From: Acidobacteriota bacterium | Lineage (GTDB): Bacteria; Acidobacteriota; Vicinamibacteria; Marinacidobacterales; SMYC01 | NCBI GenBank assembly: GCA_004356105.1 | Contig: SMYC01000016.1 | Location: 891-64,890, forward strand | Direction of reading: 5' to 3' | Length of the DNA stretch: 64,000 bases | Part shown: one piece after another, positions 5,312 through 41,492 of the stretch | Position numbering within the stretch: the stretch's first letter is position 1 | Layout: every line of letters begins with the position of its first letter | Made by a program: the position numbers and the translations under genes | Notes under the pieces: generated by a model | Told to the model about the DNA's origin: nothing | Databases searched by the model: none | The model's input: the letters and a program-made list of their open reading frames with translations, nothing else

Positions 5312-8992
<3,681 letters not shown>

Positions 8993-20985: not shown

Positions 20986-21030
20986 CAATAGCGAAAAGCG
21001 TAACGTAGCGACGCGACAGAAGGGGATTGG

Positions 21031-21110: not shown

Positions 21111-21185
21111 TTTGAGGCGCTTCATGCGGACGATTTGGGCGCCAAGGTTCAAAGACGGGGAGGTTCAGGCCTTCAGCGCTGTACA

Positions 21186-23659: not shown

Positions 23660-23762
23660 CAAGCTGACGAAACGACATCCCCTTGCTTTTGCTCTTTGCG
23701 ACACCACTCTCGCGGGAGCTGTACCGCTTTAAGCTCGACCCGCGGTGTGTTACAACGGAGAT

Positions 23763-24719: not shown

Positions 24720-24781
24720 CTGATACATGAGGATAGAGAGACTGGCGATCGACGACCGGTGACTGCTACGATGCGGGTGTC

Positions 24782-25090: not shown

Positions 25091-25290
25091 GCTTCCGCCC
25101 AGCCGCGTAGTTCAAATCATTGAACCTAGCAGTGTTGCGGGAGGCCTGCGGTAAAATCCTCATGATCGAGCGCGCGCCGTGGCGTATAATAGAGAAGTAC
25201 GCAAACCAAGGCTCAGGAAGCTACCACTTCGAAACCGCTGGGCCGGCGCCCTCGGGTAAAAAGAACACTCCCGGGGCGGTTAAAAAAAGG

Positions 25291-26274
25291 ATGGCTGTGC
25301 CCCCGCACGAAGGCCAGTACGTAGCAACGCGTTGGCGACGTCGCCGAGCGGTCTTGGTCGGCGCTGTCACTGTTGTAGTGCTGCTTGTAGTGCTGCTCGC
25401 GTGTTTGGGAGCGTCCCCGCCGTACGGGCCGCTTCATCGCCTGGTCGCACTTTCGGGAATGCTCGGCAAGCCCGTATCGCCCTTAGTACCGGCAGCGCCA
25501 GTTCAGCCGATCAAGAACGAACCGCCACAAACATCTGGTTCCCCGGAAGACCTTTTCATGCTGCCGCAGGCGCTTCAGCAGTACCGGAGCCCCGAGATTA
25601 GCGACCCACGTGTTCCGCGTGAGTTTTATTTCTCTCGCGCGGCCTATACCGGTCGTTCCCGTTTTCGCAACTATCGCACGTGGAGCGTCGATTTTCCGAA
25701 GGCGGATCGGCAGTTCTTGATAGGGCTCCGCCGCCTCACGAATCTCGATGCTTTCGAGGCCGAGAATCCGCTGCGGCTCACGGATCCAAACCTCGGACGC
25801 TTTCCGTTCCTGTATACGGTCGAGGTCGGCTACATGGCGCTCACCCAGCCCGAGGTCGAGGGGCTGAGGCGCTATCTCCTGGCGGGAGGCTTTCTCGTCG
25901 TCGATGATTTTTGGGGTACCTACGAGTTCGAGAACTTCCAGGACCAGTTCCAGCGCATTCTTCCCGGATACCCGATCGTGGACATCCCGCTCGATCATCC
26001 GATTTTCAGCTGCTTCTACCACGTGGAAGAGATCATTCAAGTTCCCAACGTCGGACAAGGCATGCAAGGTGGTCCGACGTGGGAGTCGGATGGGTATTAT
26101 CCGGCCCTGAAGGGTGTCTACGATGAGCATGGGCGGCTCATGGTCGTGATCAATTGGAACACGGACCTCGGAGATGCCTGGGAGTGGGCTGAAAATCCCT
26201 ATTACCCGCTCAAATTCTCGACTTATGCTTACCAAATGGGAGTAAACTTCATTATCTACGCAATGAGTCATTGA
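25291..26274 (+). CDS. DUF4159-like membrane-anchored protein (paralog 1). The likely start is ATG at 25291.
   Basis: It has a TM anchor (LVGAVTVVVLLVVLLACLG). The core YLLAGGFLVVDDFWG...HPIF...GVNFIIYAMSH is clearly paralogous to the ORF at 32235. The family assignment is from memory of MoxR/BatA neighbourhoods. Confidence 0.55.
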   Translation: MAVPPHEGQYVATRWRRRRAVLVGAVTVVVLLVVLLACLGASPPYGPLHRLVALSGMLGKPVSPLVPAAPVQPIKNEPPQTSGSPEDLFMLPQALQQYRSPEISDPRVPREFYFSRAAYTGRSRFRNYRTWSVDFPKADRQFLIGLRRLTNLDAFEAENPLRLTDPNLGRFPFLYTVEVGYMALTQPEVEGLRRYLLAGGFLVVDDFWGTYEFENFQDQFQRILPGYPIVDIPLDHPIFSCFYHVEEIIQVPNVGQGMQGGPTWESDGYYPALKGVYDEHGRLMVVINWNTDLGDAWEWAENPYYPLKFSTYAYQMGVNFIIYAMSH

Positions 26275-28583
26275 TGGCATCTTGGGTCGAAAGCGTTTTT
26301 GAGTTTCTATTCAAGTACCGCCCGTTGCTCTACGAGCGAGGCGAGTTCAGTCTCGGTGTGTCCTGGCCGCTCATTTTGGCAGGCGTCGTGGCGGTGGTTC
26401 TAGCAGTACCCACGGTCCTGTGTTATCGAGACGTGCGCGGCAAGAGCTCCGCCCGCGATCGTCTCGTGCTCACTGGTTTGAGGACGGCCGCATTGCTGCT
26501 CGTCTTGTTCTGCCTGTTTCGTCCTTCGCTCAGCTTGTCGACGGTCGTTCCGCAGAGGAGCTTTGTCGGCATCCTGCTCGACGACTCGCGCAGCATGCAG
26601 ATCGCGGATGTCGAGAACGAGCCTCGCGGCCGTTTCATTCAGGACACCTTTGGTCCCGAGGGGAGCGCACTCGCGAAAGCGCTCTCCGACAAGTTCATAG
26701 TTCGGTTTTTCCGCTTCTCGGAGACAGCGCAACGTTTGAACGATCCCGCGGCGCTCACCTTTGCAGGGGCACGGACGCACCTCGCGCGCTCTCTCATACG
26801 AAGCGCCGAAGAGCTTTCGAACGTTCCTCTCGCGGGCCTCATCGTCATGAGCGACGGCGCCGATAACTCGAACGCGGCGATCAGCGATACGTTGCTCGAG
26901 CTTCAAGCGCGGAAAGTACCGGTCTATACCGTTGGCCTCGGACGTGAGCGCTTTACGAAGGACATCGAAATCTCTCGGGTTGAAGCTCCAAGGAGCGTAC
27001 TCGTTGGCTCGTCGCTCATTGTGGACGTCACGATCTCGCAGCGGGGCTTCAACGGCGAGACCGTCCGCCTCGACGTCGAGGATGACGGTCGAATCGTGAG
27101 CTCGCGCGAGGTCGAGCTTTCTTCCGAGGCAACAACGGTGCGGATTCATTTCACCGCCGCGGATCCCGGAGCGCGCATTTTCCGTTTTCGGGTTGCGACC
27201 AAGGAGGGTGAGATGGTCTCGCAGAACAATCAGCGCGACCAGCTCATCTATGTCGAGGACGAACGCCCCAAGATTTTGTACTTCGAAGGCGAGCCGCGCT
27301 ACGAGGTCAAGTTCATCCGGCGCGCGGTTGCGGATGATGAGAACTTGCAGGTCGTTTGTCTACTGCGCACCGCGGAGAACAAATATTATCGTATCGACAT
27401 CGACGATCCCGAAGAGCTTGCGAGCGGCTTTCCGAAAACGCGCGAAGAGCTCTTCAAATATCGGGGCCTCATTCTAGGGAGCATCGAAGCGAGCCATTTC
27501 ACGCATGACCAGCTCCGAATGATCGCGGACTTCGTTAGCCAGCGCGGCGGCGGCTTGCTCGTGCTCGGCGGCCGTCTCGCGCTCTCCGAGGGCGGCTATG
27601 CCGGAACACCGGTCGCGGACGTGCTTCCCGTCGTGCTCTCTCCAGCCAAAGAGCGCTCCGAAGCTGAGGAGCTCGCGGGCCCGGCTTTCTTCAGCACGCT
27701 CACGGTGAAGCCGACGCCGTTCGGGGCGACCCATCCTGTCACGCAGTTCGGCCCGGATCTCGATGCGAGCAGCGAACGTTGGGCGACACTGCCGCCGCTA
27801 TCGACCCTGAACGATGTGACTGCCGTGAAGCCGGGCGCGACCACGCTTCTGACAGGCTCGGGGCCGGGTGTAGACGAGCAGCCTGTACTCGTCTTCCAGC
27901 GCTACGGTCGGGGAAAATCCATCGCCTTCACGGTCAACGATTCGTGGCTATGGCAGATGCATCATGACATGCCGCTCGAGGACATGACGCACGAGCTGCT
28001 CTGGCGAAAACTTCTGCGGTGGCTCGTGAGCTACGTTCCCCAACAAGTATCGATAAGCGCTGAAAAACATCGCTACGCGCCCGGCGAGAGTGTCTCGCTG
28101 CTCGCCGAAACGGATGACGACCGTTTCTTGAAAGTAAATAATGCCCAAGTCACGGCCACCGTTCGAACACCCTCGGGAGAGCGTTTCGACGTCCCAATGG
28201 AATGGACCGTAGACAAAGACGGCGAATATCGCGGAAATTTCTTGCCCAGGGAAAAGGGTATCTATGAAATCACCGTCTCGGCGATGCGCGACGGTGTCGA
28301 GCTCGGGACCGCCCGCGCCTTCACCGAGTCCCAAGACCTCGATGACGAGTACTTTCAAGCCGAGATGCGCATGGCTCTCTTGGAGCGCGTCGCGCACGAG
28401 ACCGGTGGCCGGTTTTACACGCCGGATACCGTCGCCCGTCTCCCCGAGGACATGACTTACGCCGAAGGCGGGATGACCGTGCGCGAGCAGCATGACCTCT
28501 GGGACATGCCATTCATCTTCTTGATGCTCGTCGGCCTCGTCGGCTCGGAGTGGGGCTACCGGAAGCTCCGAGGCCTCGCATGA
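26271..28583 (+). CDS. N-terminal double-TM, VWA, GATase1-like (ThuA/DUF1355-like) domain protein (BatA-related)
   Basis: The two N-terminal helices are followed by ILLDDSRSMQ (MIDAS), then LIVMSDGADNS. The C-terminal region reads GLILGSIEASHFT...GGGLLVLGG. It overlaps upstream and downstream genes by 4 and 34 nt. Confidence 0.65.
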   Translation: MMASWVESVFEFLFKYRPLLYERGEFSLGVSWPLILAGVVAVVLAVPTVLCYRDVRGKSSARDRLVLTGLRTAALLLVLFCLFRPSLSLSTVVPQRSFVGILLDDSRSMQIADVENEPRGRFIQDTFGPEGSALAKALSDKFIVRFFRFSETAQRLNDPAALTFAGARTHLARSLIRSAEELSNVPLAGLIVMSDGADNSNAAISDTLLELQARKVPVYTVGLGRERFTKDIEISRVEAPRSVLVGSSLIVDVTISQRGFNGETVRLDVEDDGRIVSSREVELSSEATTVRIHFTAADPGARIFRFRVATKEGEMVSQNNQRDQLIYVEDERPKILYFEGEPRYEVKFIRRAVADDENLQVVCLLRTAENKYYRIDIDDPEELASGFPKTREELFKYRGLILGSIEASHFTHDQLRMIADFVSQRGGGLLVLGGRLALSEGGYAGTPVADVLPVVLSPAKERSEAEELAGPAFFSTLTVKPTPFGATHPVTQFGPDLDASSERWATLPPLSTLNDVTAVKPGATTLLTGSGPGVDEQPVLVFQRYGRGKSIAFTVNDSWLWQMHHDMPLEDMTHELLWRKLLRWLVSYVPQQVSISAEKHRYAPGESVSLLAETDDDRFLKVNNAQVTATVRTPSGERFDVPMEWTVDKDGEYRGNFLPREKGIYEITVSAMRDGVELGTARAFTESQDLDDEYFQAEMRMALLERVAHETGGRFYTPDTVARLPEDMTYAEGGMTVREQHDLWDMPFIFLMLVGLVGSEWGYRKLRGLA

Positions 28584-29575
28584 TCGCGAGGGCGTTCGCG
28601 GTCGTCCTCATCTCGACATTGGCCGCCGTCGCGACGGCGAACCAGACCTACCTCGTCATCATTTCGGGCCTCGGCGGCGAGGACCGGTACCGCGAGAGGT
28701 TCCACCAATGGTCGCTCGCGATGCGTGAAGCGGCGCTAACGGACGCGGCCGTCCCCGAAGACAACATTTTCTACCTCGCCGAGAAAGTCGAGCTTTCTCC
28801 CGAGCTCGTGCACGCGAAGTCGACCAAGGACAACGTCATCGCGCTTTTCGAGAAAATACAGAAAAAAGTGCGCCCGGGCGATCAGCTCTATGTGTTGCTC
28901 ATCGGTCACGGCAGCTTTCGCTCGGAGCAGTCGCGGTTCAATTTACCGGGGCCGGATTTGACCGCCGAGGATTTCGACGCAATCTTGGCGCCTTTTGGCG
29001 AACAACAAATCGTGTTCGTCAATACGTCGAGCGCGAGCGGAAATTTTGTTCGCATTCTCTCGGGGCCCAATCGCATCGTGGCGACCGCGACGAAGAGCGG
29101 CTACGAGCGGAATGAATCGCAGTTTGGAAAGTATTTCGTAGAGGCCTATTCTGGAGACGGGGCGGACACGGACAAGAACGAGCGTGTATCGGTACTGGAA
29201 GCTTACACCTATGCCCGGATTCGCGTGAAGGGCTACTACGACGAAGAGAACCTGCTTCAAACCGAGCATTCCATGCTCGACGATAACGGAGACGGTGAGG
29301 GTTCTCACGAGCCTTCGGAGAACGAGGGCAACCTGGCGAGCACGGCTTATCTCATGGGTGACGCCGCGGTGGCCGAAGGGTTCGGAGAAGCCGACATCGC
29401 GGCGGATCCCGAGCTTGCGGCGCTCGTCGAGAAACGGCGTGAGCTCGAAGGGCGCGTCGTAGCGCTTCGCCAACAGAAAGACTCGATGCCGGAAGATTTG
29501 TATATGCAAGAGCTCGAGCAGGTGCTTCTGGAGCTCGCCCGAGTTACGGCCAGTATCGAGGAGAAGCGGCAGTGA
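28550..29575 (+). CDS. Legumain/peptidase C13-like protein in which Ser replaces the catalytic Cys; possible pseudo-peptidase or Ser-nucleophile variant
   Basis: It has a signal peptide. LYVLLIGHGS...QQIVFVNTSSASGNFV...IVATATKSG aligns with the legumain YFTDHGS...VFYIEACESGSM...YATTAANP blocks. Confidence 0.55.
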   Translation: MGLPEAPRPRMIARAFAVVLISTLAAVATANQTYLVIISGLGGEDRYRERFHQWSLAMREAALTDAAVPEDNIFYLAEKVELSPELVHAKSTKDNVIALFEKIQKKVRPGDQLYVLLIGHGSFRSEQSRFNLPGPDLTAEDFDAILAPFGEQQIVFVNTSSASGNFVRILSGPNRIVATATKSGYERNESQFGKYFVEAYSGDGADTDKNERVSVLEAYTYARIRVKGYYDEENLLQTEHSMLDDNGDGEGSHEPSENEGNLASTAYLMGDAAVAEGFGEADIAADPELAALVEKRRELEGRVVALRQQKDSMPEDLYMQELEQVLLELARVTASIEEKRQ

Positions 29576-32238
29576 TTGGGTCCGCCCGCTTCTCGCTACC
29601 GGCTGCCGGCTATCTGCGTGTTTTTGGTGTTGTTCTCTTGCTAAGTTTGGTTTTCGTTGGGGCGGCGGGGGCTAGCCTCCAGGATGCGGAGTTGGCGCTT
29701 TCCGAGGGGCGTTATGACGAGGCCATCGCGGCGTTCGAGGCAGCATCGGTCAGCATGCCGACGCCGCGGCTCTATCACGGATGGATCGAAGCGCTTCGGC
29801 TTACGGGTAAGAACGATGACGCGCTTGCATGCGTCGATGCCTTTGTCGCAAAAGAGCCGGCTTCTGTAGAGCTCGAGAACGTGCGTGGCGAGGTTCTTTA
29901 CGAGACAGGACATATCGATGAAGCGCGTACCGCTTTCGAAAAAGCGATTGCCGCGGGCGCCCGCGATCATCTTACGGCGGAGCTCAACCTTGCAATCCTT
30001 TACCGGGAGCAGGGCGACTTAGACGAGGCCCTCAGCCGGTTCGATGCCTTCATCGACGTCTACAACGGCAACTCGTCGCTGCGCGCCGACGAGCTCCTCG
30101 CGGTAGGTGTTGCGTGCTGGTATCTCGGCGCGACGAACCCGCAGCTCTTCAAGGACGCTTTGAAAGCCCTCGACGAGGCGAAAGCAGCTGACCCCTCGTC
30201 GATCGAGCCGACGATTTTCGCGGGCTCCTTGTTTCTCGAGAAATATAACAGCCCCGACGCCAGCTCGAGCTTTGACGAAGCGCTCTCCATGAACCCGAAC
30301 CATCCCGAAGCTCTTTTCGGCATGGCCCAAGTGAAGGCCTTCGACGGCTCGCCCGAAGCGCTTACTTTGGCCGAGAAAGTGCTCGAAGTGAACCCGAATC
30401 ACGTCGCGGCCCGCGCGTTCGTCGCGGAGCAGCATCTCGGACTCGAAGATTACGGCAGCGCGCGGTCGGAAGCGGAAAAAGCGCTCGAAGTGAACCCGCT
30501 GTCGCCCGATGCGCTCCCGATTTTGGCCGCGGCGGAGCTTTTGAGCGGCAACGAAGCCGGCTTCCGCGTGGTCGAGGCGCGCGCCCTCGAGAGGAACCCG
30601 CGCGACGCGGATTTTTACAACAAGCTCTCCGAGATCGCCGTCAATAATCGTCTCTACGAGCGTGCCGCGGATTTCGCCAAAAAGGCAGTGGAGCTCGACG
30701 AGCGCTCGTGGTGGGGCTACGGGCTTCTCGGCGTCAATCAGCTCCGGCTCGGTAATATCGAAGAAGGGACCAAGAATCTCGAGCTCTCCTTCAAAGGTGA
30801 CCCCTACCACATCTGGAACAAGAACACGCTCGATCTTCTCGACACCTTCGTCGACTACGAAACGACGCTGACCGAGCGGTTCGAGATATTCATTGAACGT
30901 CAAGAATCCGATCTGCTCTCGGTCCACTACGCAAACGTCGCGGAAGAGGCCTACCAGAAACTCTCGGAGCTCTACCAATACGAACCGCCCACTCCGATAC
31001 GGATCGAGGTCTTCCGGTCGCATGGCGACTTCTCGGTGCGGACGCTCGGGCTCCCCGGGCTCGGTGCTCTCGGCGTTTGTTTCGGCCGGGTGATTGCGGT
31101 CGATTCACCTTCCGCGCGCCAGAAGGGTCAGTTCAACTGGGCGTCGACCCTCTGGCACGAGCTCGCCCACTCGGTGACCCTCGGCATGACCGATCACAAA
31201 GTGCCGCGCTGGTTCTCGGAGGGTCTCTCTGTGCTCGAAGAGCGGCGCGCCCGCCCGGGCTGGGGTGACGACGTGAATCTCGGCTTTCTCGCGGCCTATC
31301 AGCGCGAGCGGCTACTGAAGATAGCGGAGCTGAATAACGGCTTCATGCGTCCCACCTACCCGCAGCAAATCGGGATCTCTTACTATCAGGCATCGCTCGT
31401 CGCGGAGCTCATCGAGCGCGACTTCGAGTTTCAAGCGATCCGCGACATGTTGGCGGCCTATCGTGATGATCTCTCGACGCCGGAAGTTTTTGAGAAAGTG
31501 CTCGGCCTGACGCTCGACGCGTTCGACACGCGCTTCGATGAATATTTGGCCGAGCGCTTCGACGCGATTGCCGCGACCCTTCGGCTCCCGCCCGAAGATG
31601 ACAGGGCGCCCGACTCGGTCGAGGAGCTCGCGACCCGCGCCGAAGAAGACGCGTTCGATTTCATCGCTCAGCTCGAGACCGGACGCCGCGCCCTCGAAGA
31701 GGGCGACATCGAAAAGGCCGAGAAGCTTCTCGAGCGTGCCAAGAAGCTCTTCCCCCAATATGCCGGCGAAGGCAACGCCTATTTAGCACTCGCGAAAATC
31801 CACGAGGATCGGGGCGACATCCGCCGTGCCGCCCAAGAGCTCGCGACCTTCGTCGACATCAACGAGAACCACTACGATGCGCACGTCATGCTAGCCGGGC
31901 TCTACGTGGATCTGGACGAGAAAGCGAAGGCCGCGGAGATTCTGAAGCGCGCACTCTATATCTACCCGTTCGAGCTCGAGGACCATAGAAAACTCGCGGA
32001 GCTCTACCGCGCAACGGGGCGGAAGGATGAGGTTATCGTCGAGCGCCGCGCGCTACTCGCGCTCACGACGGACCGCGCCCAGGCACTCTATGAGCTCGCG
32101 CTCGCCTACCATGAGGCGGGGGACGATAGCCGCGCGCGCCTGGAGCTTTTGAGAGCGCTCGAGCTCGCCCCCGCTTTCAAAGACGGCCTCGCACTCTTGC
32201 TGAAGCTCTCACGTTCCAAGAAAGGCGACGGAGCGTGA
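29572..32238 (+). CDS. Tetratricopeptide-repeat protein with an embedded peptidase MA-like zincin motif
   Basis: The 888-aa protein has a signal/TM N-terminus. TPR-like AxxAxxxY repeats flank WHELAHSVTL...WFSEGLSVLEE (HEXXH plus a downstream Glu). Confidence 0.65.
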   Translation: MIGSARFSLPAAGYLRVFGVVLLLSLVFVGAAGASLQDAELALSEGRYDEAIAAFEAASVSMPTPRLYHGWIEALRLTGKNDDALACVDAFVAKEPASVELENVRGEVLYETGHIDEARTAFEKAIAAGARDHLTAELNLAILYREQGDLDEALSRFDAFIDVYNGNSSLRADELLAVGVACWYLGATNPQLFKDALKALDEAKAADPSSIEPTIFAGSLFLEKYNSPDASSSFDEALSMNPNHPEALFGMAQVKAFDGSPEALTLAEKVLEVNPNHVAARAFVAEQHLGLEDYGSARSEAEKALEVNPLSPDALPILAAAELLSGNEAGFRVVEARALERNPRDADFYNKLSEIAVNNRLYERAADFAKKAVELDERSWWGYGLLGVNQLRLGNIEEGTKNLELSFKGDPYHIWNKNTLDLLDTFVDYETTLTERFEIFIERQESDLLSVHYANVAEEAYQKLSELYQYEPPTPIRIEVFRSHGDFSVRTLGLPGLGALGVCFGRVIAVDSPSARQKGQFNWASTLWHELAHSVTLGMTDHKVPRWFSEGLSVLEERRARPGWGDDVNLGFLAAYQRERLLKIAELNNGFMRPTYPQQIGISYYQASLVAELIERDFEFQAIRDMLAAYRDDLSTPEVFEKVLGLTLDAFDTRFDEYLAERFDAIAATLRLPPEDDRAPDSVEELATRAEEDAFDFIAQLETGRRALEEGDIEKAEKLLERAKKLFPQYAGEGNAYLALAKIHEDRGDIRRAAQELATFVDINENHYDAHVMLAGLYVDLDEKAKAAEILKRALYIYPFELEDHRKLAELYRATGRKDEVIVERRALLALTTDRAQALYELALAYHEAGDDSRARLELLRALELAPAFKDGLALLLKLSRSKKGDGA

Positions 32239-33017
32239 GCCCGACATTGAAAAAGAGATTGTTTCTCGCTCTCGCGGCCGTTGTCGTCATGAGCCTCGCG
32301 GTCCCGATCGGGGCAAGCTTCTTGCAAGGGTTCGACGTTCCCTATGAGAATCACGCCTATAACGGGCGGTTCACCTTCGTTCGGGTCAAGTTCGAACCGA
32401 CGCAATGGGGACGAGGTCCGTATCAGTGGGGGCTGGATCTCAAATGGAACCATGACTACCCCCAGGCCGAGCGGAATTTGATGACGATCCTGAAGCATCA
32501 CACGTCGATATCCCCCAATATGGGGAAGAGCAACATTTACGCGCTCGACGATCCCGAGCTGTTCAGGTATCCCTGGGCCTATCTCTGCGAGGTCGGGTTC
32601 TGGAATCCGACGAAGGCCGAAGCCGAAAGCTTGCGCACCTATTTGCTCAAAGGCGGGTTTCTCGTCGTCGACGATTTCATCACGGAATGGCAGTGGTTCA
32701 ACTATGTCGAGCAGATGCGCAAAGTGATGCCCGATTACCAGCTCGTAGAGCTGGATGTCTCGCATCCGATTTTCAATTCCTTCTTCTACATCGAAACGCT
32801 CGATTTCGAGCACCCCACCTTGCCCGGCTATCAGCCCGTTTACTACGGCATCTTTGAAGACAACGATCCCAAGAAACGGCTCATGGTGATCGCGAATTAC
32901 AACCACGATATCGGCGACTATTGGGAATGGTCGGGAAGTGGCTGGGTACCCATCGATATCTCGAACGAGGCTTTCAAGCTCGGTGTCAACTACGTCGTTT
33001 ACGGGATGACGCATTGA
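32235..33017 (+). CDS. DUF4159-like secreted protein (paralog 2)
   Basis: Signal peptide. YLLKGGFLVVDDFITEW...HPIFNSFFY...GVNYVVYGMTH is paralogous to 25291-26274. Confidence 0.55.
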   Translation: MSPTLKKRLFLALAAVVVMSLAVPIGASFLQGFDVPYENHAYNGRFTFVRVKFEPTQWGRGPYQWGLDLKWNHDYPQAERNLMTILKHHTSISPNMGKSNIYALDDPELFRYPWAYLCEVGFWNPTKAEAESLRTYLLKGGFLVVDDFITEWQWFNYVEQMRKVMPDYQLVELDVSHPIFNSFFYIETLDFEHPTLPGYQPVYYGIFEDNDPKKRLMVIANYNHDIGDYWEWSGSGWVPIDISNEAFKLGVNYVVYGMTH

Positions 33018-33035
33018 AGGCGTGCTTACTGATGA

Positions 33036-34112
33036 TTGCTGACGGGATGCGGGGCACACCGAAAGAAAGGAAAGCTAGTCTTGGCTGAAGAAGAAAAAGT
33101 CGCCCTCGAATCCGAAGATGACATCGCCCTCGCGGACAAGCTCAAAGACGCTTATGCGAATGTTACGAGCGAGATCAAAAAGCAAATCGTGGGCCAGGAA
33201 GGCCCGATCGAACAGGTGCTCATATCTCTGTTCGTCGGCGGCAATTCCATCATCACGGGCGTTCCCGGCCTTGCGAAGACGATGATCGTGCACACCGTTG
33301 CCCAGGTCCTGGATCTCAAATTCGCTCGGATCCAGTTTACGCCGGATCTGATGCCGTCCGACATCACGGGCACCGACCTCGTGCAAGAAGACCCGCAAAC
33401 GGGTAAGCGCGAGCTCGTCTTCATGCCCGGGCCCATCTTCAACAACATCGTGCTCGCCGACGAGATCAACCGGACGCCGCCCAAGACACAATCGGCGCTT
33501 CTCGAAGCCATGCAGGAGCACCAGGTCACGATTCAAGGACGCACCTATCCGCTCGAAGAGCCTTTTTTCGTCTTCGCGACCCAGAACCCGATCGAGCTCG
33601 AAGGCACCTATCCGCTTCCTGAAGCACAGCTCGACCGCTTCATGTTCAACATCATCATTGATTACATGCCGGAAGAGGACGAGATGGAGGTGGTGCGGCA
33701 GACGACGGCGATACAGGAAATTAGCTTCAACAACGTTATCACCGGTGAAGACATCCTGGCGTTCCAAAGGCTCGTGCGGCGCGTGCCGGTCGCGGAGTCG
33801 ATCATGCGCTACGCGGTGCGCCTCTCACGGACGTCGCGGCCAGGCGAAGAGGGTGCTCCTGACTTCGTCGAGAAGTGGGTCGAGTACGGTGCGAGCGTCC
33901 GGGCGGCGCAGTACATCATCCTCGGCAGCAAGGCCCGGGCCATCATGGATGGGCGCTATCACGTGAGTTATGAGGACATTCGCGCCCTCGCGCCGCCGGT
34001 CTTTCGCCACCGCATCCTGACCAATTTCCACGCGCAGTCGGAGAAGATTTCCTCGGAGAAGATCCTCGACCAGCTTCTTGAAACGGTCGATGCTCCGAAA
34101 TCAAGAATGTGA
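33036..34112 (+). CDS. MoxR-family AAA+ ATPase
   Basis: IVGQEGPIEQVLISLFVGGNSIITGVPGLAKT (Walker A), LADEINRTPPKTQSALLEAMQE (Walker B / sensor 1), and VFATQNP. Confidence 0.9.
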   Translation: MLTGCGAHRKKGKLVLAEEEKVALESEDDIALADKLKDAYANVTSEIKKQIVGQEGPIEQVLISLFVGGNSIITGVPGLAKTMIVHTVAQVLDLKFARIQFTPDLMPSDITGTDLVQEDPQTGKRELVFMPGPIFNNIVLADEINRTPPKTQSALLEAMQEHQVTIQGRTYPLEEPFFVFATQNPIELEGTYPLPEAQLDRFMFNIIIDYMPEEDEMEVVRQTTAIQEISFNNVITGEDILAFQRLVRRVPVAESIMRYAVRLSRTSRPGEEGAPDFVEKWVEYGASVRAAQYIILGSKARAIMDGRYHVSYEDIRALAPPVFRHRILTNFHAQSEKISSEKILDQLLETVDAPKSRM

Positions 34113-34154
34113 TGTTCAGCATTCAGCATTCAGGATATTCGGATTTAGCTCGGC

Positions 34155-35063
34155 ATGGCTGAAACACAGGAGCGGCTCGGGCAGTTTGTCGACCCTCACG
34201 TGCTTGGGCGCATCTCGAATTTGAAGTTGCTCGCGCGTAGTGTGGTGCAGGGGTTTATTAGTGGGCTTCATCGCTCGACTTATCTCGGGCGCTCGGTCGA
34301 TTTTGCCGAGCATCGGGCTTATATGCCGGGGGATGACATTCGTCAGATCGATTGGAGGCTCTTCGCGCGGACCGACCGCTTCTACGTGAAACAGTTCGAG
34401 GCGGATACGAATACGAGCCTGACGGTGCTTCTCGACATCTCGCGCTCGATGAACTTCGGGAGCGAAGGCATCACGAAGCTCGACTATGCGCGCTACCTCG
34501 CGGCGTCGCTCGCGGTGTTCTCGCAAAAACAGCGCGATCGCATCGGCCTCGTCACCTTCGACGAGGACATCGTGGATTTCGTGCCCCCTTCGGCGAAACA
34601 TCTCGAGATCGTGCTTCACACTATCGATCGTGTGAAGTCCACCAAGGCGGGCGAGTACCGGAAGCCTTTGCAAAAAATCGCCGGGGCGATCCAGCGGCGG
34701 AGCATCGTCGTGCTCATTTCGGATCTCTATGACGAGCCGGAGGCCATCCTCGACGCCGTGAAGGGGTTGCGGTACAAAGGGAACGACCTCATCGTCTTCC
34801 ACGTTCTCGACCCCGCCGAGCTCAGTTTTCCCTATGACGGAGCCGCGAATTATCGAGACCTCGAATCGGGCGAGGCTCAGCCGATCATTCCCGAATATTT
34901 GCGGGACGAGTATCGCAAGCTCGTCCAGGAGCACATCTCGCGCCTGACCCACACGCTCGGTGATAATAAAATCGATTATGTGCTCATGGACACGTCCACA
35001 CCGCTCGAATACGCACTTTTTCATTTCCTCTCGAGCCGTGAACGGATGACGCGGACGAGGTGA
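34155..35063 (+). CDS. DUF58 protein (VWA-like MoxR partner)
   Basis: GRSVDFAEHRAYMPGDDIRQIDWRLFARTDRFYVKQFE...LLDISRSM is the hallmark DUF58 motif. Confidence 0.85.
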   Translation: MAETQERLGQFVDPHVLGRISNLKLLARSVVQGFISGLHRSTYLGRSVDFAEHRAYMPGDDIRQIDWRLFARTDRFYVKQFEADTNTSLTVLLDISRSMNFGSEGITKLDYARYLAASLAVFSQKQRDRIGLVTFDEDIVDFVPPSAKHLEIVLHTIDRVKSTKAGEYRKPLQKIAGAIQRRSIVVLISDLYDEPEAILDAVKGLRYKGNDLIVFHVLDPAELSFPYDGAANYRDLESGEAQPIIPEYLRDEYRKLVQEHISRLTHTLGDNKIDYVLMDTSTPLEYALFHFLSSRERMTRTR

Positions 35064-35067
35064 GCCC

Positions 35068-37200
35068 ATGAGTTTTCTCACTCCTGCTTTTTTTCTCGGC
35101 GCGTTGGCGCTGGCGATCCCGGTCATCATTCATCTGACGAACCGTGAGAAGAAGGAAATCGTCGACTTTCCCTCGCTCATGTTTCTCCGGCGTATTCCGT
35201 ATCGGTCAGTACGTCGGCAGCGGCTCCGCCATCTGCTACTTTTTGCGCTGCGCTGTCTCGCGCTGCTCCTCTTGATCTTGGCCTTCGCGCGCCCGTTCCT
35301 CGAATCGACGACGGCGGCGAGTGCTTTGTCTCTGGGACCTCGTGAAGTGGTTTTCGTGCTCGATCACTCCTACAGCATGGGCTACGAGGACCGGCTCGAG
35401 CGTGCCAAAGATGAGATACGCAGGCAGATTGCAATGCTTTCGCCCGACGAGCGCGCATCGGTCGTCGTCTTCTCGGATCGCGCGGAGATCTCGAATCAAC
35501 CGACCTCCGACAAAGATCAGCTGAGAGCGATCGTAAACGGCGTCACGCTTTCGGCACGAACGACGCGCTACGGTCCCGCCTTGAAGCTCGCCAAGAAGAT
35601 CGTCGACGAATCGTCGCTGACGCGGAAGGAAGTCTTCCTGCTGACCGATTTTCAGCGTCTCGGCTGGGAAGGCGATGAGGACGTTTGGTTTCCCGCGGAT
35701 ACGAAATTCACGACCATTGATGTCGGGAGCCCGAAATCTGCCAATCTCGCGGTGACGGGTGTGATTCTCGAGCGCAAAAAGACCGACAGAAGTAAGAACG
35801 CATCATCCTCAGTCTCAGTGCGCGAGCGGCTCATCGCTACCGCGCGTGTCACCTACAAGGCGCCCGATGGTGACCCGCCGGTCGAGACCAATATCCGACT
35901 TCTGCTCAACGGCCGTTCGCTCCAGTCGAAAAAGCTTCAGCTCGCCCCGAACAGCTCGACCACGGTGAGCTTCGATCCTCTGACGCTTCCGGGTGGCGTC
36001 TCGCGCGGGACGGTTCAGCTCGACGCCGACAAACTCGAGATCGACAACGCCTATCACTTCGTGCTCTGGCCAGGGCAATCGTTGAACGTGCTGTCACTGG
36101 ACGGAAATCGTGGCAGAAGCCTCTACGTAGATCGCGCCTTGGCGATCGGCGAACGGCCGTCATTTCGCCTCGAGAGCAAACGGATGAGCCAATTGGGCGC
36201 CGCCGATCTGGCGGGTCGGCATGTGGTGCTCTTGAACGACGTCGCTTCGTTCGGGGCCGCTAGAGCGCGTCTTCTCGAGCGCTTTGTCAAAGAAGGTGGC
36301 GGTCTCATCATCGCACTCGGGGAAGCGAGCGGCCGGAACAGTTTCACCGGAGACGCCGCGCGACTCCTGCCGGCGCCGCTCGGGGGTTCCACCGATCGCG
36401 CTCGTGACTGGGGTGGGACATTGTCTTATTTGGATTACGGATCGCCGGTCTTCGAAATCTTTGGAGCACCGCATAGTGGCGATTTTTCCGCGGCCAAATT
36501 TTTTCGCTACCGCACCTTCGAAGGGCCGATTTCAAGCGGCATACTCGCACGCTACGATGATGGGGCTGTAGCACTTGCCGAGAAGACCATCGGCGAGGGT
36601 CGAGTGCTCGTGTGGACGTCGACGCTCGACACTTTCTGGAACGACTTGGCGTTGCAGCCCGTGTTCTTGCCTTTTCTGCACCAGCTCATAAAATACGCCG
36701 CTGGCTACGCGGAGGTGAACGCATGGCATACCGTCGGCGAGGTCGCGGATCTCGAGCAATTTCTTGCCGTGGCAGGCGAGGACACAGCATCCGATGGCGA
36801 ACGGAAAGTCGATCTCGTCGTCTCGTCGCCTTCCGGAACGCGCACGATCATCCCGCCGAGCGAAGAACGCGCGCTCTTGTCGCTTTCGGAGCAAGGATTC
36901 TACGAGATTCGCCAGGCAGGCAGCGGTTCTGGGACGGCCGTGGCCATGGCCCTCGCGTCGAACTTGGATTTGACCGAGTCCGATCTCGCCAAGCTCGATC
37001 CGGAGGAGCTCGTGGCCTCGGTCACCTTTCGTGACTTGAGCGCCGCCGCTCCCGCCGCGGGGGAGACAGTGGCCGACCGAGAAGGACGGCAGGGCTTTTG
37101 GTGGTATTTGCTCGTCGCCGCTTTCATTGCTCTGGCGATGGAGACAATCCTTTCGAATCGCTTGTCGCGCGCTCGGACCGTGGTGTCTGCTGTCGGCTAA
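35068..37200 (+). CDS. BatA-like protein with an N-terminal double-TM anchor and a VWA domain
   Basis: PAFFLGALALAIPVIIHL...LALLLLILAFARP are the double-TM helices, then FVLDHSYSM (MIDAS). The 710-aa size matches the 600-700-aa two-anchor family. Confidence 0.75.
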   Translation: MSFLTPAFFLGALALAIPVIIHLTNREKKEIVDFPSLMFLRRIPYRSVRRQRLRHLLLFALRCLALLLLILAFARPFLESTTAASALSLGPREVVFVLDHSYSMGYEDRLERAKDEIRRQIAMLSPDERASVVVFSDRAEISNQPTSDKDQLRAIVNGVTLSARTTRYGPALKLAKKIVDESSLTRKEVFLLTDFQRLGWEGDEDVWFPADTKFTTIDVGSPKSANLAVTGVILERKKTDRSKNASSSVSVRERLIATARVTYKAPDGDPPVETNIRLLLNGRSLQSKKLQLAPNSSTTVSFDPLTLPGGVSRGTVQLDADKLEIDNAYHFVLWPGQSLNVLSLDGNRGRSLYVDRALAIGERPSFRLESKRMSQLGAADLAGRHVVLLNDVASFGAARARLLERFVKEGGGLIIALGEASGRNSFTGDAARLLPAPLGGSTDRARDWGGTLSYLDYGSPVFEIFGAPHSGDFSAAKFFRYRTFEGPISSGILARYDDGAVALAEKTIGEGRVLVWTSTLDTFWNDLALQPVFLPFLHQLIKYAAGYAEVNAWHTVGEVADLEQFLAVAGEDTASDGERKVDLVVSSPSGTRTIIPPSEERALLSLSEQGFYEIRQAGSGSGTAVAMALASNLDLTESDLAKLDPEELVASVTFRDLSAAAPAAGETVADREGRQGFWWYLLVAAFIALAMETILSNRLSRARTVVSAVG

Positions 37201-37274
37201 GTCAAGCTATACTAGTAAGTAAGCGTGAAGCGCTTTGGGCACGAACAGCTAGATGATTTTTCGGAGCTTAGGCA

Positions 37275-40200
37275 ATGGAGATTTTCGAGACATCGGGCTA
37301 CCCGCAATTACTTCGAGTCATCCGCTACGTAAGAAGCCGTTGGCGTATCCGGAACACGGTCAGAGGCATCGCCTTTCTTCTGCTGTTCGGGCTCGTGGCC
37401 TTCGCCATCTCCGCTTACGGGATGGAGTATTTCCGCTATAGCGCGTGGTCCGTCCGGCTCTTCCGCATCTTTACTTATGTTGCGCTCGTCGGCGTCGCTT
37501 TGCGGTTCCTCATACGCCCTCTCGCGAAGCGCGTCACTAACGAACAAGTCGCACTCTATATCGAAGAACACGATCCGTCCTTGAAAGAGGCCCTCTCGAG
37601 TGCGCTCGAGGTGGGCGGTTTCGAGAATGGCGAGGGCCGGACGAAGAAGGCTGATGCGAGCGTGTCGCCTGCTCTCATCGAGAAGCTCGTCGAGCAAACG
37701 GTGGAGCGCTGTGAGTCTATCGATTACGGGCACGTGATCGATCAAGATGGTCTGAAGAAAAGCTCAGCCGTTTTCCTTGCCGTGGCGGTTGCCGGAATGA
37801 TTGCGGTCCTGCTCAGCCCCGGCTTTTTGCGCTACGGTGCGGGGCTTCTTCTCAACCCGATGAGAAGCGCCCAAGCGGCGAGCCCTTACTTGATCGTTGT
37901 CGAGCCCGGTGACATCGGCGTCGCGCGCGGCGCCGATCAACTCGTGACGGCGGAGCTTCAGGGATTCGATGCTGAAGAGTCGGATATCGCTGTCAAGAGC
38001 GAAGGCGAGGACGAGTGGCGCCGTTTACCAATGAGCTTCGACGACGAGACGGGACTCTATTCGTTCATGCTCTTCGATCTCGAGGACCCGACGGAATATT
38101 ACGTCGAGGCCCATGGCGTCCGGTCAGATTTATTTCGCGTGGATGTCTCGGATCTGCCTTACGTGCGGCGTATCGATCTCGAATACGAGTTCCCGAGCTA
38201 TACCGGGCTCTCTCCGCAGCGTGTAGAGGACGGGGGCGACATCGCGGCGCTTCGAGGAACCAAAGTCCATCTGAGCATCCATCCGACGGTCCGCGTCGCC
38301 GGTGGCGTGCTCGCGGTTGAAGACAAGGATCCGGTGCCGCTCCAGCTCGGCCCGGACGGCAATTTGTCGGTGACGCTCGAGCTCGTCGAGGACGGTTTCT
38401 ATCGCATCGATCTCGAATCCTTCGACGAAACGTTGCAGCCTGCATCTCCCGACTACGCCATCGAGCTTCTGTCGGATCAGCCTCCTTCGGTGACGATCGT
38501 GAAACCCGGCAGGGATTCGAAAGTGAATCCGATCGAGGAAGTGTTCACCGAGATCAAAGGCGAAGACGATTACGGCCTGCGCCGCCTCGAGCTCGTCTTT
38601 TCGGTGAATGGGGGCGAAGAGCAGATCGTCGTGCTTTATGACGGACGCGGGAAGAAAGAAATGATCGCGGGCTACACATTCTTCCTCGAAGATTACGAGC
38701 TTCAGCCAGGCGATTTCATTTCCTATTATGCGCGCGCCAAAGATGTCGGCGGCACGCAAGTGGCGATGACGGACATCTATTTCATCGAAGCGCGGCCCTT
38801 CGATCGCCAATATCGTCAAGCCCAAGGCGGGATGCAGGGCGGCGGTGGCGGCGGTATGGAAGGCACGCTGTCCCTCCGTCAGCGCGAGATCGTGGCAGCG
38901 ACGTTCAAGCTCATTCGCGACAAGGCCAAGTACAAAAAGCGGGACTGGGAAGAAAATCTCACAACGATAGCGCTCATGGAGGGCCGGCTTCGGGATCAAG
39001 TTACCAACTTGCTGCGCCGCATGGGCAATCGCGGTATTACCGCTGTGGATAGTGATTTCGTGACCATCAGCGAGTCTTTGAAAAAGGCCATCGATGAGAT
39101 GGGCTTGGCCGAGGAGAGCTTGACGGTCAAAGACCCGGACGAAGCGATGCCGTTCGAGCAGCGGGCGCTACAACATCTGCAGCGGGCCGATGCCTTTTTT
39201 CGCGAAGTGCAGGTCTCCTTCCAACAGGGTGGCGGCGGTGGCGGCGGTCAGGCCGCAAGCGCCGAGGACCTCGCGGATCTCTTCGAGCTCGAGCTCGACA
39301 AGCTCCGGAATCAGTACGAGATGGTGCAGCGCGGACAGCGGCAGAGTGTCGACAACGAAGTCGATGAAGCGCTCCAGCGGTTGCAAGAGCTTGCGCGCCG
39401 CCAGCAGCAGGAGAACGAACGGATGCGCCGCCGGGCTAGCCGCCTACGCAACCAAATGGGTGGCGGCTCTGGCATGAGCCAGCGCGAGCTCGCTGAGCAG
39501 ACCAAAGAGCTCGCGCGCGAGCTCGAGCGTCTCTCGCGCGATCATTCTTCTCCCGATCTCAAGGACACGGCGCGCCGCCTCGAGCAGGCGGCCAACGACA
39601 TGATGCGAGCGGGAGCCAGGGGCGACGACGGCGCGCTCGCCGAAGGGCTGGCCGCGCTCGACAAGCTCAAAGACGCACGCCGTTTGCTCGACAAGAACCG
39701 GTCGGTGCGGCTCGAGCGCGATATGGATGATGTGATAGAACAGGTGGAGCGCCTGAAGGCGCAACAAGAGCGCATCCAGTCCGAGGTGTCTAAGCTCAGT
39801 GCACAAGGCCAGGGAAGCGGTGAGCGACTGAAGCGTATCTTCGAGCGCAAGGACGAGCTTGCCGAGCAGGTTGCCAATCTGGAATCCCAGCTAGATCGAA
39901 TGGCGCGGGACTCGCGTAGCGAACAAAAAGAAGCCTCGCGTAAGATCCAAGAGGCGGCCAACTCGATTCGCGATACGAAGCTCAAGGAGAAGATCCGCTA
40001 TAGCAAGGGTGTCGTTCAGGGACGCTCGGGACAATATGCCGATAATTTCGAGACCGTCATCGGCGAGGACATCGAATCGCTACGCGATCGCCTCGGTGAA
40101 GCGCGGGGTGCAATCGGCAAGTCCGAGCAAGACAAAGTCGCCGAGGCGATCAACCAGACGCGCGACCTCGTGCGGAACCTCGAGTCGCTTTCGGAGCGCA

Positions 40201-40787
40201 TCCGGGAGCGCCGTGAGGCCGAGCAGGGCGAACGGGCCGAACTGGATCGGCGCGGCCAGGGGCGGCAGGGTCAGGAAGGACAGCAACAAGGACGAGAAGG
40301 TCAAGAGGGCCAACAGGGCCAAGCTCAGCACGGCCAAGAGGGTCAACAGGGCCAACGCAGCCAGGGAGGCGCCTCTGGGCCGAGCTCGATTGGGCCAGGC
40401 GACCAGACCGGTGGCGGCGGCTACCAGCCTGGACAATTCTCCACGGAAGAGCTCCGGCAGCTGCGCCGTGAGTTCCACGAGCGCGTGTCGGATGCCGAGG
40501 CCCTACGGCAGGACCTCGCGCGCCAGAAGCTCAACGTGCCCGACCTCGGTGAGATCATCCGCCGGATGAAAGAGTTCGATAAAAAGCAGATCTACTTGAA
40601 TCCCCTCGGTCTCGAGCAGCTCGAAGAAGAGGTGTTGACAGATCTCAAGCAGTTCGAGTACTGGTTACGGCGCGAGCTCGAGGGCCTCACGGAGGGCGAG
40701 CTCTACGTCGCGGGCTCGGACCAAGTTCCCGCGGGGTACCGGAATCTCGTCGAGGAGTATTTTCGGGCGCTTTCGCGAGAGCAATGA
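37275..40787 (+). CDS. Large membrane-anchored protein (1170 aa) with N-terminal TM helices and a long Gln/Gly-rich coiled-coil C-terminal region (DUF4175/TIGR02302-like)
   Basis: It has two to three N-terminal TM helices. Low-complexity runs include QGGMQGGGGGGMEG, QQGGGGGGGQ and GQGRQGQEGQQQGREGQEGQQGQ, with heptad-like charged segments. It is the last big gene of the MoxR operon. Confidence 0.5.
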   Translation: MEIFETSGYPQLLRVIRYVRSRWRIRNTVRGIAFLLLFGLVAFAISAYGMEYFRYSAWSVRLFRIFTYVALVGVALRFLIRPLAKRVTNEQVALYIEEHDPSLKEALSSALEVGGFENGEGRTKKADASVSPALIEKLVEQTVERCESIDYGHVIDQDGLKKSSAVFLAVAVAGMIAVLLSPGFLRYGAGLLLNPMRSAQAASPYLIVVEPGDIGVARGADQLVTAELQGFDAEESDIAVKSEGEDEWRRLPMSFDDETGLYSFMLFDLEDPTEYYVEAHGVRSDLFRVDVSDLPYVRRIDLEYEFPSYTGLSPQRVEDGGDIAALRGTKVHLSIHPTVRVAGGVLAVEDKDPVPLQLGPDGNLSVTLELVEDGFYRIDLESFDETLQPASPDYAIELLSDQPPSVTIVKPGRDSKVNPIEEVFTEIKGEDDYGLRRLELVFSVNGGEEQIVVLYDGRGKKEMIAGYTFFLEDYELQPGDFISYYARAKDVGGTQVAMTDIYFIEARPFDRQYRQAQGGMQGGGGGGMEGTLSLRQREIVAATFKLIRDKAKYKKRDWEENLTTIALMEGRLRDQVTNLLRRMGNRGITAVDSDFVTISESLKKAIDEMGLAEESLTVKDPDEAMPFEQRALQHLQRADAFFREVQVSFQQGGGGGGGQAASAEDLADLFELELDKLRNQYEMVQRGQRQSVDNEVDEALQRLQELARRQQQENERMRRRASRLRNQMGGGSGMSQRELAEQTKELARELERLSRDHSSPDLKDTARRLEQAANDMMRAGARGDDGALAEGLAALDKLKDARRLLDKNRSVRLERDMDDVIEQVERLKAQQERIQSEVSKLSAQGQGSGERLKRIFERKDELAEQVANLESQLDRMARDSRSEQKEASRKIQEAANSIRDTKLKEKIRYSKGVVQGRSGQYADNFETVIGEDIESLRDRLGEARGAIGKSEQDKVAEAINQTRDLVRNLESLSERIRERREAEQGERAELDRRGQGRQGQEGQQQGREGQEGQQGQAQHGQEGQQGQRSQGGASGPSSIGPGDQTGGGGYQPGQFSTEELRQLRREFHERVSDAEALRQDLARQKLNVPDLGEIIRRMKEFDKKQIYLNPLGLEQLEEEVLTDLKQFEYWLRRELEGLTEGELYVAGSDQVPAGYRNLVEEYFRALSREQ

Positions 40788-40859
40788 GCCGCCCTGGCGG
40801 TAACCGAGCCGAGATGCTACGCTAGTTTCAAGCATCTTCCAAGAAAATCGGGGTTTCCC

Positions 40860-41492
40860 ATGCCGAGAATTGCGTCGTTTCTTTTCGCCGCCGTGCTCTT
40901 GCTTACCTGGTCTGCCTCTGCCTCACCTGCTGGGCAGTCGCTCGGCGAGCTTGCGCGCAAGGAGCGTGAGCGCCGTGATGAGAACAAAGCCCAAGGCGTC
41001 GCCGCCCGAGAGTTCGCGGAGGCGGAGATCTTCGAACAGGAGGAGGACTTCGATGCCGAGGAAGGTGAAGACGGTGCCGACGCCAACGAAAGCGATCCCG
41101 ACAACAGCACCGACATCGCCGGCGATCCAGAAGGGGCTAGAAGGCGCAGCTCGATAGGCCTCGACGCCGCCTTGGACGATCCCGAATCTGCCAACCGGGA
41201 AAACGAGAGCCGGGACCGTAGTCGACGCGAAGCCGATTTCCGAGCGCGCTATCAAACTGCAAAACAACGTGAGGCCGCCGCGCAAAAGCGCAAGCAAAAC
41301 CTCGATGGTATTTACGTCGTCGAGGGAGTCCGGTATGTCGACGAAAAAGGGAATACGGTCATCGAATCTCTCGATCATTTGCGCCGCCTCATTCGGGAGG
41401 CCGAACAGGAGCGGCAGGCTGCAGCAGAGACCGTGAAGGCGCTCGAAGAAGAGGCGCATCGGCAGAACTATCCAAAAGGGTGGCTACGTTAG
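40860..41492 (+). CDS. Secreted highly acidic hypothetical protein
   Basis: Signal peptide (FLFAAVLLLTWSASA), then D/E-rich low complexity. Confidence 0.4.
   Translation: MPRIASFLFAAVLLLTWSASASPAGQSLGELARKERERRDENKAQGVAAREFAEAEIFEQEEDFDAEEGEDGADANESDPDNSTDIAGDPEGARRRSSIGLDAALDDPESANRENESRDRSRREADFRARYQTAKQREAAAQKRKQNLDGIYVVEGVRYVDEKGNTVIESLDHLRRLIREAEQERQAAAETVKALEEEAHRQNYPKGWLR

Follow-up and report, generated by a model that had tools for sequence, protein, structure and literature searches.

A 64,000-nucleotide (nt) stretch of an Acidobacteriota bacterium genome (contig SMYC01000016.1 of assembly GCA_004356105.1; the whole stretch is hereafter the window) carries nine plus-strand genes in one unbroken run from 25291 to 40787, as read from the open reading frame (ORF) listing and translation. 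We call these genes A to I. In our best explanation, which we hold to be probable, they form a single tightly packed operon, conserved and uncharacterised, that represents a lineage-specific expansion of the MRP-type MoxR-DUF58-BatA/VWA envelope operon, and thus a known class and not a new machine. What is known is the MoxR-DUF58-BatA/VWA class; what is new is its expansion by a legumain-fold protein (C), a tetratricopeptide repeat (TPR)-zincin protein (D), two DUF4159 proteins (A and E) and a second VWA/GATase1-like protein (B). A first-pass annotation of this DNA had proposed a tightly packed same-strand cluster in a combination not known as characterised. The cluster proved to be real (nine genes joined by 1–4 nt overlaps or short gaps), all of the proposed domain assignments were supported, by profile searches of A to I and, for C, by matches of its orthologs and a structural model, and the combination is indeed uncharacterised, as our literature search found no paper on it.

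The cluster contains a MoxR gene, an adjacent DUF58 gene and a membrane VWA protein with a metal ion-dependent adhesion site (MIDAS), the features of an MRP-type MoxR-DUF58-VWA operon. Domains were called by Pfam and NCBIfam profile scans of A to I, and transmembrane (TM) segments and signal peptides by hydropathy. Gene F (33036–34112) encodes a cytoplasmic MoxR AAA+ ATPase (AAA_3, 4.6e-62; AAA_lid_2, 1.1e-14; Pfam), in whose translation the Walker A (GVPGLAKT) and Walker B (LADE) motifs are intact. F scored 208 bits on AAA_3 vs 34.6 bits on bpMoxR, and judged by these profiles it is an AAA_3/MRP-type MoxR of a subfamily other than the conflict-system MoxR. Gene G (34155–35063) starts 42 nt downstream of F and encodes a cytoplasmic, VWA-like DUF58 protein (DUF58, 5e-46; VWA_2, 1.5e-11; MIDAS DISRS), the presumed co-chaperone of the MoxR protein. 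Gene H (35068–37200) combines a BatA-type double-TM N-terminus (BatA N-terminus, 1.6e-20; TIGR02226, 2.4e-22) with a VWA domain (VWA_2, 1.7e-16; MIDAS DHSYS), a GATase1/ThuA-like region and a C-terminal TM segment; ThuA itself gave a faint match in one H ortholog. The VWA core of DUF58 matched that of H in profile-profile comparison (E-value 1e-7). The MoxR-DUF58-BatA core recognised in the first-pass annotation is therefore confirmed by its AAA_3, DUF58 and BatA/TIGR02226 matches. Hydropathy revealed neither a signal peptide nor a TM segment in F and G, and signal or TM segments in all other operon products; therefore the earlier claim that every product is envelope or periplasm-facing fails for the MoxR and DUF58 proteins.

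Gene B (26271–28583) encodes a three-TM protein (segments 34–52, 65–83 and C-terminal) with a predicted periplasmic VWA domain (MIDAS DDSRS), a GATase1_like domain (5.8e-11, Pfam) and an Ig/filamin-like region (Filamin, 1e-3, Pfam). When the B and H families were compared with hhalign, they aligned over ~550 columns (549) with a probability of 98.5 and an E-value of 3.5e-15. By this alignment B and H are paralogous three-TM VWA + GATase1-like proteins. The cluster may be a maturation machine for VWA adhesin-like proteins, as the first-pass annotation suggested, but B and H are of the inner-membrane-anchored BatA type rather than surface adhesins. Their predicted topology agrees with that of BB0173, encoded in the Borrelia BB0170-BB0176 locus, which has been shown experimentally to lie in the inner membrane with its VWA domain in the periplasm (PMC5700661). 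The last gene, I (37275–40787), encodes a 1170-aa, three-TM, DUF4175-like protein (TM segments 25–43, 62–80 and 166–184). Its DUF4175 match (1.7e-14) reached 53 bits vs a threshold of 27.3, yet covered ~130/825 profile positions, and TIGR02302 was not matched in the NCBIfam scan. Behind the TM segments lies a predicted periplasmic beta-rich region (residues ~200–500), and after it comes an extended stretch rich in E/R/K/Q that contains poly-Gly/Gln tracts; residues 1–750 are 45–76% conserved in 48 orthologs.

Genes A (25291–26274) and E (32235–33017) encode DUF4159 proteins (Pfam; A, 1.3e-42 and 146 bits; E, 7.3e-47 and 160 bits). Their mutual hhalign E-value of 4.5e-64 identifies them as paralogs, so the duplication of this family seen in the first-pass annotation stands. 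A is predicted to be exported or membrane-anchored, with one N-terminal hydrophobic segment and orthologs that are likewise hydrophobic at the N-terminus, and E, whose N-terminus resembles a signal peptide, is predicted to be secreted. The sole significant solved relative of E was the uncharacterised Hoch_4089 (PDB 4i66), which was matched both by the DUF4159 profile (E-value 3.5e-12) and by the AlphaFold2 (AF2) model of E (Foldseek E-value 3.9e-12; TM-score 0.60/0.76). The Pfam clan of DUF4159 also holds ThuA, GATase1_like and Glyco_hydro_42M, on structural grounds (PMC4702930); our literature search on DUF4159 found nothing beyond this clan note. We attempted to link DUF4159 to the GATase1-like domains of B and H by our own comparisons, and the outcome was not convincing: the direct profile comparison with the H domain was weak (E-value 0.004 at best), a fold search towards GATase1-like domains reached 3rht at an E-value of 1.1, and the link rests on the Pfam clan assignment.

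A homolog search with E and a DUF4159 profile search of 1.84 billion representatives returned almost only standalone DUF4159 proteins. One 370-aa protein of the representative library (P0308) carries an N-terminal STN (secretin/TonB N-terminal) domain, a hint that the setting of some DUF4159 proteins is the outer membrane or is TonB-related. A standalone DUF4159 protein with 30% identity to E is encoded on the Corynebacterium crudilactis plasmid pCRULAC1 (NZ_CP015623.1, 129740–130357), inside a multi-resistance region (IS26, aph, sul2, dfr) distant from any MoxR context. A lone DUF4159 gene was also present at ~183 kb on plasmid 1 of Gemmatirosa, in the region 168577–197245; we rejected it as a cluster member, since it lies outside any cluster, ~550 kb from the real one, which was found with H.

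Gene C (28580–29575) encodes a secreted protein with a C-terminal helical tail. The protein of the window had no Pfam match. PF01650 (Peptidase_C13) is a precomputed match in many C orthologs, C has >1400 homologs, and some of these are named 'C13 family peptidase [Vicinamibacteria]' by NCBI. By sequence, the C family showed only marginal matches to metacaspases in the PDB, at the His-Gly motif (E-value 0.19). An AF2 model of C (pLDDT 84.6, built on 37 homologs) found plant and human legumains as its best PDB matches in Foldseek (E-values 7.5e-9 to 1e-7; probability 1.00; TM-scores 0.46–0.57), followed by metacaspases and the catalytic subunit of the glycosylphosphatidylinositol (GPI) transamidase; peptide asparaginyl ligases were also among the closest structural relatives. 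On the strength of this model, C is predicted to have the caspase-hemoglobinase (legumain) fold of clan CD, with a coiled-coil C-terminal tail standing where legumain has its LSAM prodomain. Its nearest described counterparts are the legumains of family C13 and the pseudo-orthocaspases. Aligning the C family profile with a legumain sequence, we take His110 to correspond to the catalytic His, Ser151 to the catalytic Cys and a Gly to Asn42 of the triad. C keeps the His-Gly motif and '...SG' after the fourth strand; the catalytic His-Cys dyad (with Asn) of family C13 is not present, as Cys and Asn are not retained. The legumain-like protein with Cys replaced by Ser described in the first-pass annotation was thus borne out by structure and alignment.

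Ser151 was invariant in the 120 closest homologs of C. Among 85 orthologs drawn from related loci (35–98% identity), His110 was present in 85/85 and position 151 held Ser in 67, Thr in 15, Pro in 2 and Ala in 1. Because this interchange of Ser and Thr and the occasional loss at position 151 argue against a nucleophile, we rate C a probable pseudo-protease and peptide-binding module. All 13 Thr151 variants in the 71 loci compared sit in loci lacking D; this correlation is probably phylogenetic and not independent.

Gene D (29572–32238) encodes an exported protein in which many TPR families flank a Peptidase_MA_2 match of 31.6 bits (cut-off 32.4). In D orthologs, Peptidase_MA_2 was matched unmarked (E-value ≤ 1e-5) in 4/7 loci (L001-L004, L087) and weakly in 3/7. 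The gluzincin motif, HExxH with a downstream Glu, is found as HELAH at residues 529–533 plus E550, and H529, E530, H533, W547, E550 and G551 are invariant (63/63 sequences), which corroborates the HEXXH zincin with TPRs reported previously. These residues make up a full gluzincin signature, which suggests that D is an active metalloprotease flanked by TPR arms on both sides. D lacks a counterpart between C and E in 20/71 loci and is present in 34/46 loci with full flanks; it is dispensable in about a quarter of loci, an accessory member of the cluster. Of the two peptidase modules that had been proposed, D therefore looks catalytically competent as judged from its residues, and C, with S/T/P/A at the Cys position, is a probable pseudo-protease.

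The junctions between the genes are tight. The frame of A is open from 25120, and its ATG at 25291 has an AAAGGA Shine-Dalgarno sequence upstream. A and B meet in TGATG, with an overlap of 1 nt (B at ATG 26274) or 4 nt (B at TTG 26271), B and C in ATGA, and both C/D and D/E in GTGA. The start of C is most likely ATG 28580 rather than GTG 28550, which reduces the 34-nt B/C overlap claimed earlier to 4 nt. G and H are spaced by 4 nt, and gaps of 42–74 nt separate E/F, F/G and H/I. The MoxR gene F probably starts at TTG 33081, behind a GAAAGGAAAG Shine-Dalgarno sequence; from this codon the protein is 343 aa, the length of its orthologs. A promoter and terminator consensus scan of 23000–42000 gave counts not above those of shuffled sequence and was uninformative on internal transcription units. 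In GC content the operon does not stand out from the remainder of the window.

We then compared the cluster across genomes by scanning one genome per species with C and mapping the window proteins onto the loci of the best 80 of 317 genomes; gene counts refer to 46 loci with full 10-kb flanks, from different species, recovered with C. Relatives of C were found in 317 genomes, and the best 80 were all Acidobacteriota (Vicinamibacteria, 'Marinacidobacterales', Thermoanaerobaculia) or Gemmatimonadota (Gemmatimonadales, Longimicrobiales). The order A-B-C-(D)-E-F-G-H-I was colinear in 44/46 loci and all nine genes were present in 32/46; individually, B and C were found in 46, F and G in 45, E, H and I in 44, A in 40 and D in 34. 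The cluster is not peculiar to this genome and is conserved in two phyla, its gene order kept in the neighbourhood comparison, and the boundaries 25291–40787 drawn in the first-pass annotation match the conserved unit exactly. Components were 35–60% identical across both phyla, with no variable effector slot. The closest genomic match was a marine Acidobacteria metagenome-assembled genome (CAUZCL010000010; 98% protein identity). In the cultured Gemmatirosa kalamazoonensis KBS708, the genes B-C-D-E-F-G-H-I (39–62% identity) lie on a 1.1-Mb megaplasmid (plasmid 1; NZ_CP007129.1, 726335–754368), apparently without gene A; the PLSDB entry for this plasmid is unannotated. In one locus (L087), a reverse-strand gene lies between E and F. 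An extra A-like DUF4159 gene follows I in several D-less, Vicinamibacterales-type loci (L044, L046, L056, L057, L076).

Precomputed Pfam gene lists of seven independent contigs showed the same cluster with differing outer neighbours. Some contigs have ArgRS and a MetH-like fusion of homocysteine S-methyltransferase with MTHFR beside it; the neighbours elsewhere are CCP_MauG, DUF4440, Band_7 or Fic. As the outer flanks differ while A to I stay constant, A to I is the conserved unit. In the window, its surroundings are those of a housekeeping chromosome (ArgRS, MetH, MetK, LptFG, SMC). Immediately upstream lie a secreted TIGR03436 'acidobact_VWFA' protein (23745–24719, plus strand; 1.4e-57), whose match assigns the window to Acidobacteriota, and a 102-aa ORF with no family match (24782–25090, plus strand), and further upstream a 260-aa two-TM ORF (21027–21809, plus strand). 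These three were syntenic only in the closer Vicinamibacteria/'Marinacidobacterales' loci and may extend the system in that lineage. The 210-aa acidic protein J downstream had no tblastn match in related loci, of which only L085-L087 extend past I; the genes following I there were DUF4440, Band_7, Fic or an unannotated 144-aa ORF. We considered all four as system members and rejected them, as they are conserved in close relatives only, or not at all; the upstream VWA and 102-aa genes and J, which had been placed beside the operon, are accordingly not part of the conserved unit.

A 617-aa homocysteine S-methyltransferase-MTHFR fusion (21806–23659, plus strand) separates the two-TM ORF from the secreted VWA gene. 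It occupies the same place in most Vicinamibacteria relatives and is not there in others (L003, L021 and L022); the window also encodes a full-length, B12-dependent MetH of 1226 aa (5312–8992, minus strand). Elsewhere in the window, a 773-aa ORF with two LptF_LptG matches (49359–51680, minus strand; 1.2e-153) is apparently a fused LptF-LptG permease. One gene (13384–15627, plus strand) combines a Ser/Thr protein kinase, PEGA repeats and a TonB C-terminal domain in a single protein and is followed by one for an FHA-zinc-ribbon-RDD membrane protein (15633–16754, plus strand); the two look like a kinase/FHA pair for envelope signalling.

From the anatomy of the cluster and from related systems, we infer the following mechanism. 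In the general model of MoxR-VWA systems, a peptide is bound at the MIDAS of the VWA domain, and ATP-driven remodelling then promotes complex assembly (PMC7159879, PMC3893208). Here, a hexamer of the MoxR protein and DUF58 would act as a cytoplasmic, ATP-driven chaperone pair that assembles or remodels a complex formed by B, H and I in the inner membrane, probably gripping these proteins by their basic loops or tails on the cytoplasmic side. With their large periplasmic domains, the three proteins would form a MIDAS-dependent scaffold recruiting the soluble DUF4159 proteins, with A probably pairing with B and E with H; the cluster would thereby contain two pairs of a DUF4159 and a three-TM VWA/GATase1-like protein, A/B and E/H. 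The E/R/K/Q-rich residues ~500–1170 of I, probably helical, would project into the periplasm. D, held by its TPR arms, could trim or clear components or clients of the complex, and C could serve as a non-catalytic, peptide-binding subunit. The likely role would be envelope integrity or stress tolerance, as for related operons; MoxR proteins of Francisella and Riemerella have been linked to stress tolerance. Several points weigh against this picture. I matches DUF4175 over part of the profile only. The A:B and E:H pairing was drawn from gene adjacency and a shared clan, with a direct profile E-value of 0.004. The proposed mechanism also requires a cytoplasmic ATPase to act on VWA domains in the periplasm. 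The invariant His-Gly of C and the hydroxyl residue in 97% of its orthologs mean that C may be catalytic. Finally, Leptospira bat mutants had no phenotype, and 'Bat function remains elusive' (PMC3557215).

A MoxR and VWA pair beside a caspase/legumain-fold protein and a metallopeptidase could alternatively signify a MoxR-vWA-type biological-conflict or threat-sensing system (Kaur et al. 2020; Esr pathway of Actinomycetes), with the peptidase-like proteins serving as effectors or for thresholding. Such systems share with this cluster the logic of a MoxR AAA+ ATPase with a VWA co-chaperone and nearby peptidase-fold proteins (Kaur, Burroughs, Iyer, Aravind 2020). Caspase-like and other peptidases recur in them as effectors (PMC7159879), epibiont sensing has been demonstrated for a MoxR-vWA pathway (bioRxiv 10.64898/2026.09.08.750141), and F does have a weak bpMoxR match of 34.6 bits. 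However, ternary conflict systems need VMAP, iSTAND, FtsH or a beta-propeller fused to the vWA protein as third component (PMC7159879), and none of these was found in the Pfam/NCBIfam scans of A to I. The AAA_3/MRP score of F, 208 vs 34.6 bits, also speaks against this explanation, as does the missing Cys nucleophile of C. PADLOC returned no match for 8/9 proteins and only two weak matches in the TPR regions of D (PrimPol, 9.7e-6; TPR protein, 3.1e-4). Moreover, the cluster is strictly colinear at 35–60% identity across two phyla without effector variability, and sits in housekeeping surroundings. We regard a conflict system as extremely unlikely, and the connection to MoxR-vWA nucleoside triphosphate-dependent systems drawn in the first-pass annotation fails on the absent third component, the different MoxR subfamily and the lack of a meaningful PADLOC match.

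The structural neighbours of C raise a different question, as peptide asparaginyl ligases and the catalytic subunit of the GPI transamidase are among them. C might be an active legumain-type transpeptidase with a hydroxyl nucleophile that, with D, cleaves a VWA or DUF4159 protein and links it covalently to an envelope acceptor, MoxR and DUF58 supplying the substrates; the cluster would then anchor proteins at the surface or in the periplasm. The invariance of His110-Gly, the Ser or Thr at the Cys position in 82/85 orthologs and the translational coupling of C to B and D are all consistent with such an anchoring machine. Set against this, the interchange of Ser and Thr and the Pro or Ala in three orthologs are atypical for a catalytic residue, a Gly stands where we place Asn42 of the legumain triad, and no recognisable sorting signal or acceptor was identified. 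Nor do we know of a characterised enzyme of clan CD whose nucleophile is Ser or Thr. The anchoring machine is thus very unlikely in our estimation, and we give an equally slim chance to C being live as the first clan CD peptidase or transpeptidase with a Ser/Thr-His dyad, maturing or coupling, with D, the VWA/GATase1-like and DUF4159 modules. On this improbable reading, the modules would make up a structure that spans the periplasm, with I as its base and MoxR/DUF58 powering it from the cytoplasm; if true, an MRP-type MoxR system would for the first time have a defined substrate pathway. Less improbable, though still unlikely, is that the run comprises two independent neighbours, a periplasmic protease/DUF4159/VWA module (A to E) and a standard MoxR-DUF58-BatA-DUF4175 operon (F to I). 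The only sizeable gaps are at E/F, F/G and H/I, clusters of F-G-H-B-like genes occur in Planctomyces without A, C, D and E, the reverse-strand gene of L087 separates E from F, and D is dispensable. However, the two halves are adjacent and colinear in 44/46 species of two phyla while the outer flanks change, and only one of the 46 full-flank loci recovered with C gave no MoxR in this screen. The paralog pairs B/H and A/E are moreover split across the halves, which is most simply explained by a shared complex. These observations favour a single expanded MRP-type operon.

MRP-type MoxR-DUF58-BatA/VWA operons, a class to which the Bacteroides Bat operon, Borrelia BB0170-BB0176 and Rhizobium RL3499-RL3502 belong, are very widespread. 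Links to aerotolerance, virulence, envelope integrity and resistance to stress have been drawn for them; to our knowledge, no substrate or mechanism is known for them after 25 years. The variant described here is fixed in two soil and marine phyla that are abundant and little studied. Its additions offer biochemical handles, namely a metalloprotease that its conserved motif marks as probably active, a legumain-fold binding module and duplicated DUF4159/GATase1-like pairs, and these could reveal what MRP-type complexes bind or process. The presence of the cluster on the megaplasmid of cultured Gemmatirosa kalamazoonensis KBS708 makes it experimentally approachable, and it would give a first functional context to DUF4159, a family with a solved structure and no literature.

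Among described operons, the 'broadly conserved operon' RL3499-RL3502 of Rhizobium leguminosarum, reportedly treated by Vanderlinde et al. 2011 (J Bacteriol 193:2684), is said to comprise four genes, for MoxR, DUF58 and two membrane proteins. On this make-up it would resemble F-G-H-I, which encodes MoxR, DUF58, a BatA-N/TIGR02226 membrane protein and a DUF4175-like membrane protein. The order F-G-H-I fits this type, with the qualification that the DUF4175 match of I is partial and TIGR02302 is unmatched. Unlike RL3499-RL3502, the cluster of the window has five extra upstream genes (two DUF4159, the second VWA/GATase1-like, the legumain-fold and the TPR-zincin gene). RL3499-RL3502 has an MRP-type MoxR and is reported to matter for membrane integrity and cell morphology (PMC3893208, PMC5700661); several of its genes show growth defects in transposon sequencing (Tn-seq).

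The Bat loci (Bacteroides fragilis BatI, Leptospira batA/B/D and Borrelia) place MoxR and DUF58 beside multi-TM BatA-N VWA proteins and TPR proteins, as here. The BatI operon of Bacteroides is associated with aerotolerance. In the cluster of the window, by contrast, the TPR protein D has a metallopeptidase domain, the VWA proteins carry a GATase1-like region and a C-terminal TM segment, and DUF4159, legumain-fold and DUF4175 genes are present that are not described in Bat loci. Pfam found no BatD or SH3 BatE-type domain in the nine proteins, and the Leptospira-specific NCBIfam models BatA, BatB and BatC gave 15–19 bits vs cut-offs of 175–380, so that A to I is not a Bat operon sensu stricto. 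For the Bat and spirochaete products, a complex seated on the periplasmic side of the inner membrane has been proposed (PMC5700661, PMC3557215).

Plasmid pPL62-3 of Planctomyces sp. SH-PL62 encodes the core without the additions: MoxR and DUF58 are followed by an H-like and then a B-like protein, each with ~25% identity to its counterpart, whereas in the window B precedes MoxR. The plasmid cluster has no DUF4159, legumain-fold or zincin genes, and three unannotated proteins follow its B-like gene. The occurrence of this core without C, D and DUF4159 shows a cross-phylum MoxR-DUF58-VWA core to which the Acidobacteriota and Gemmatimonadota cluster has made lineage-specific additions.

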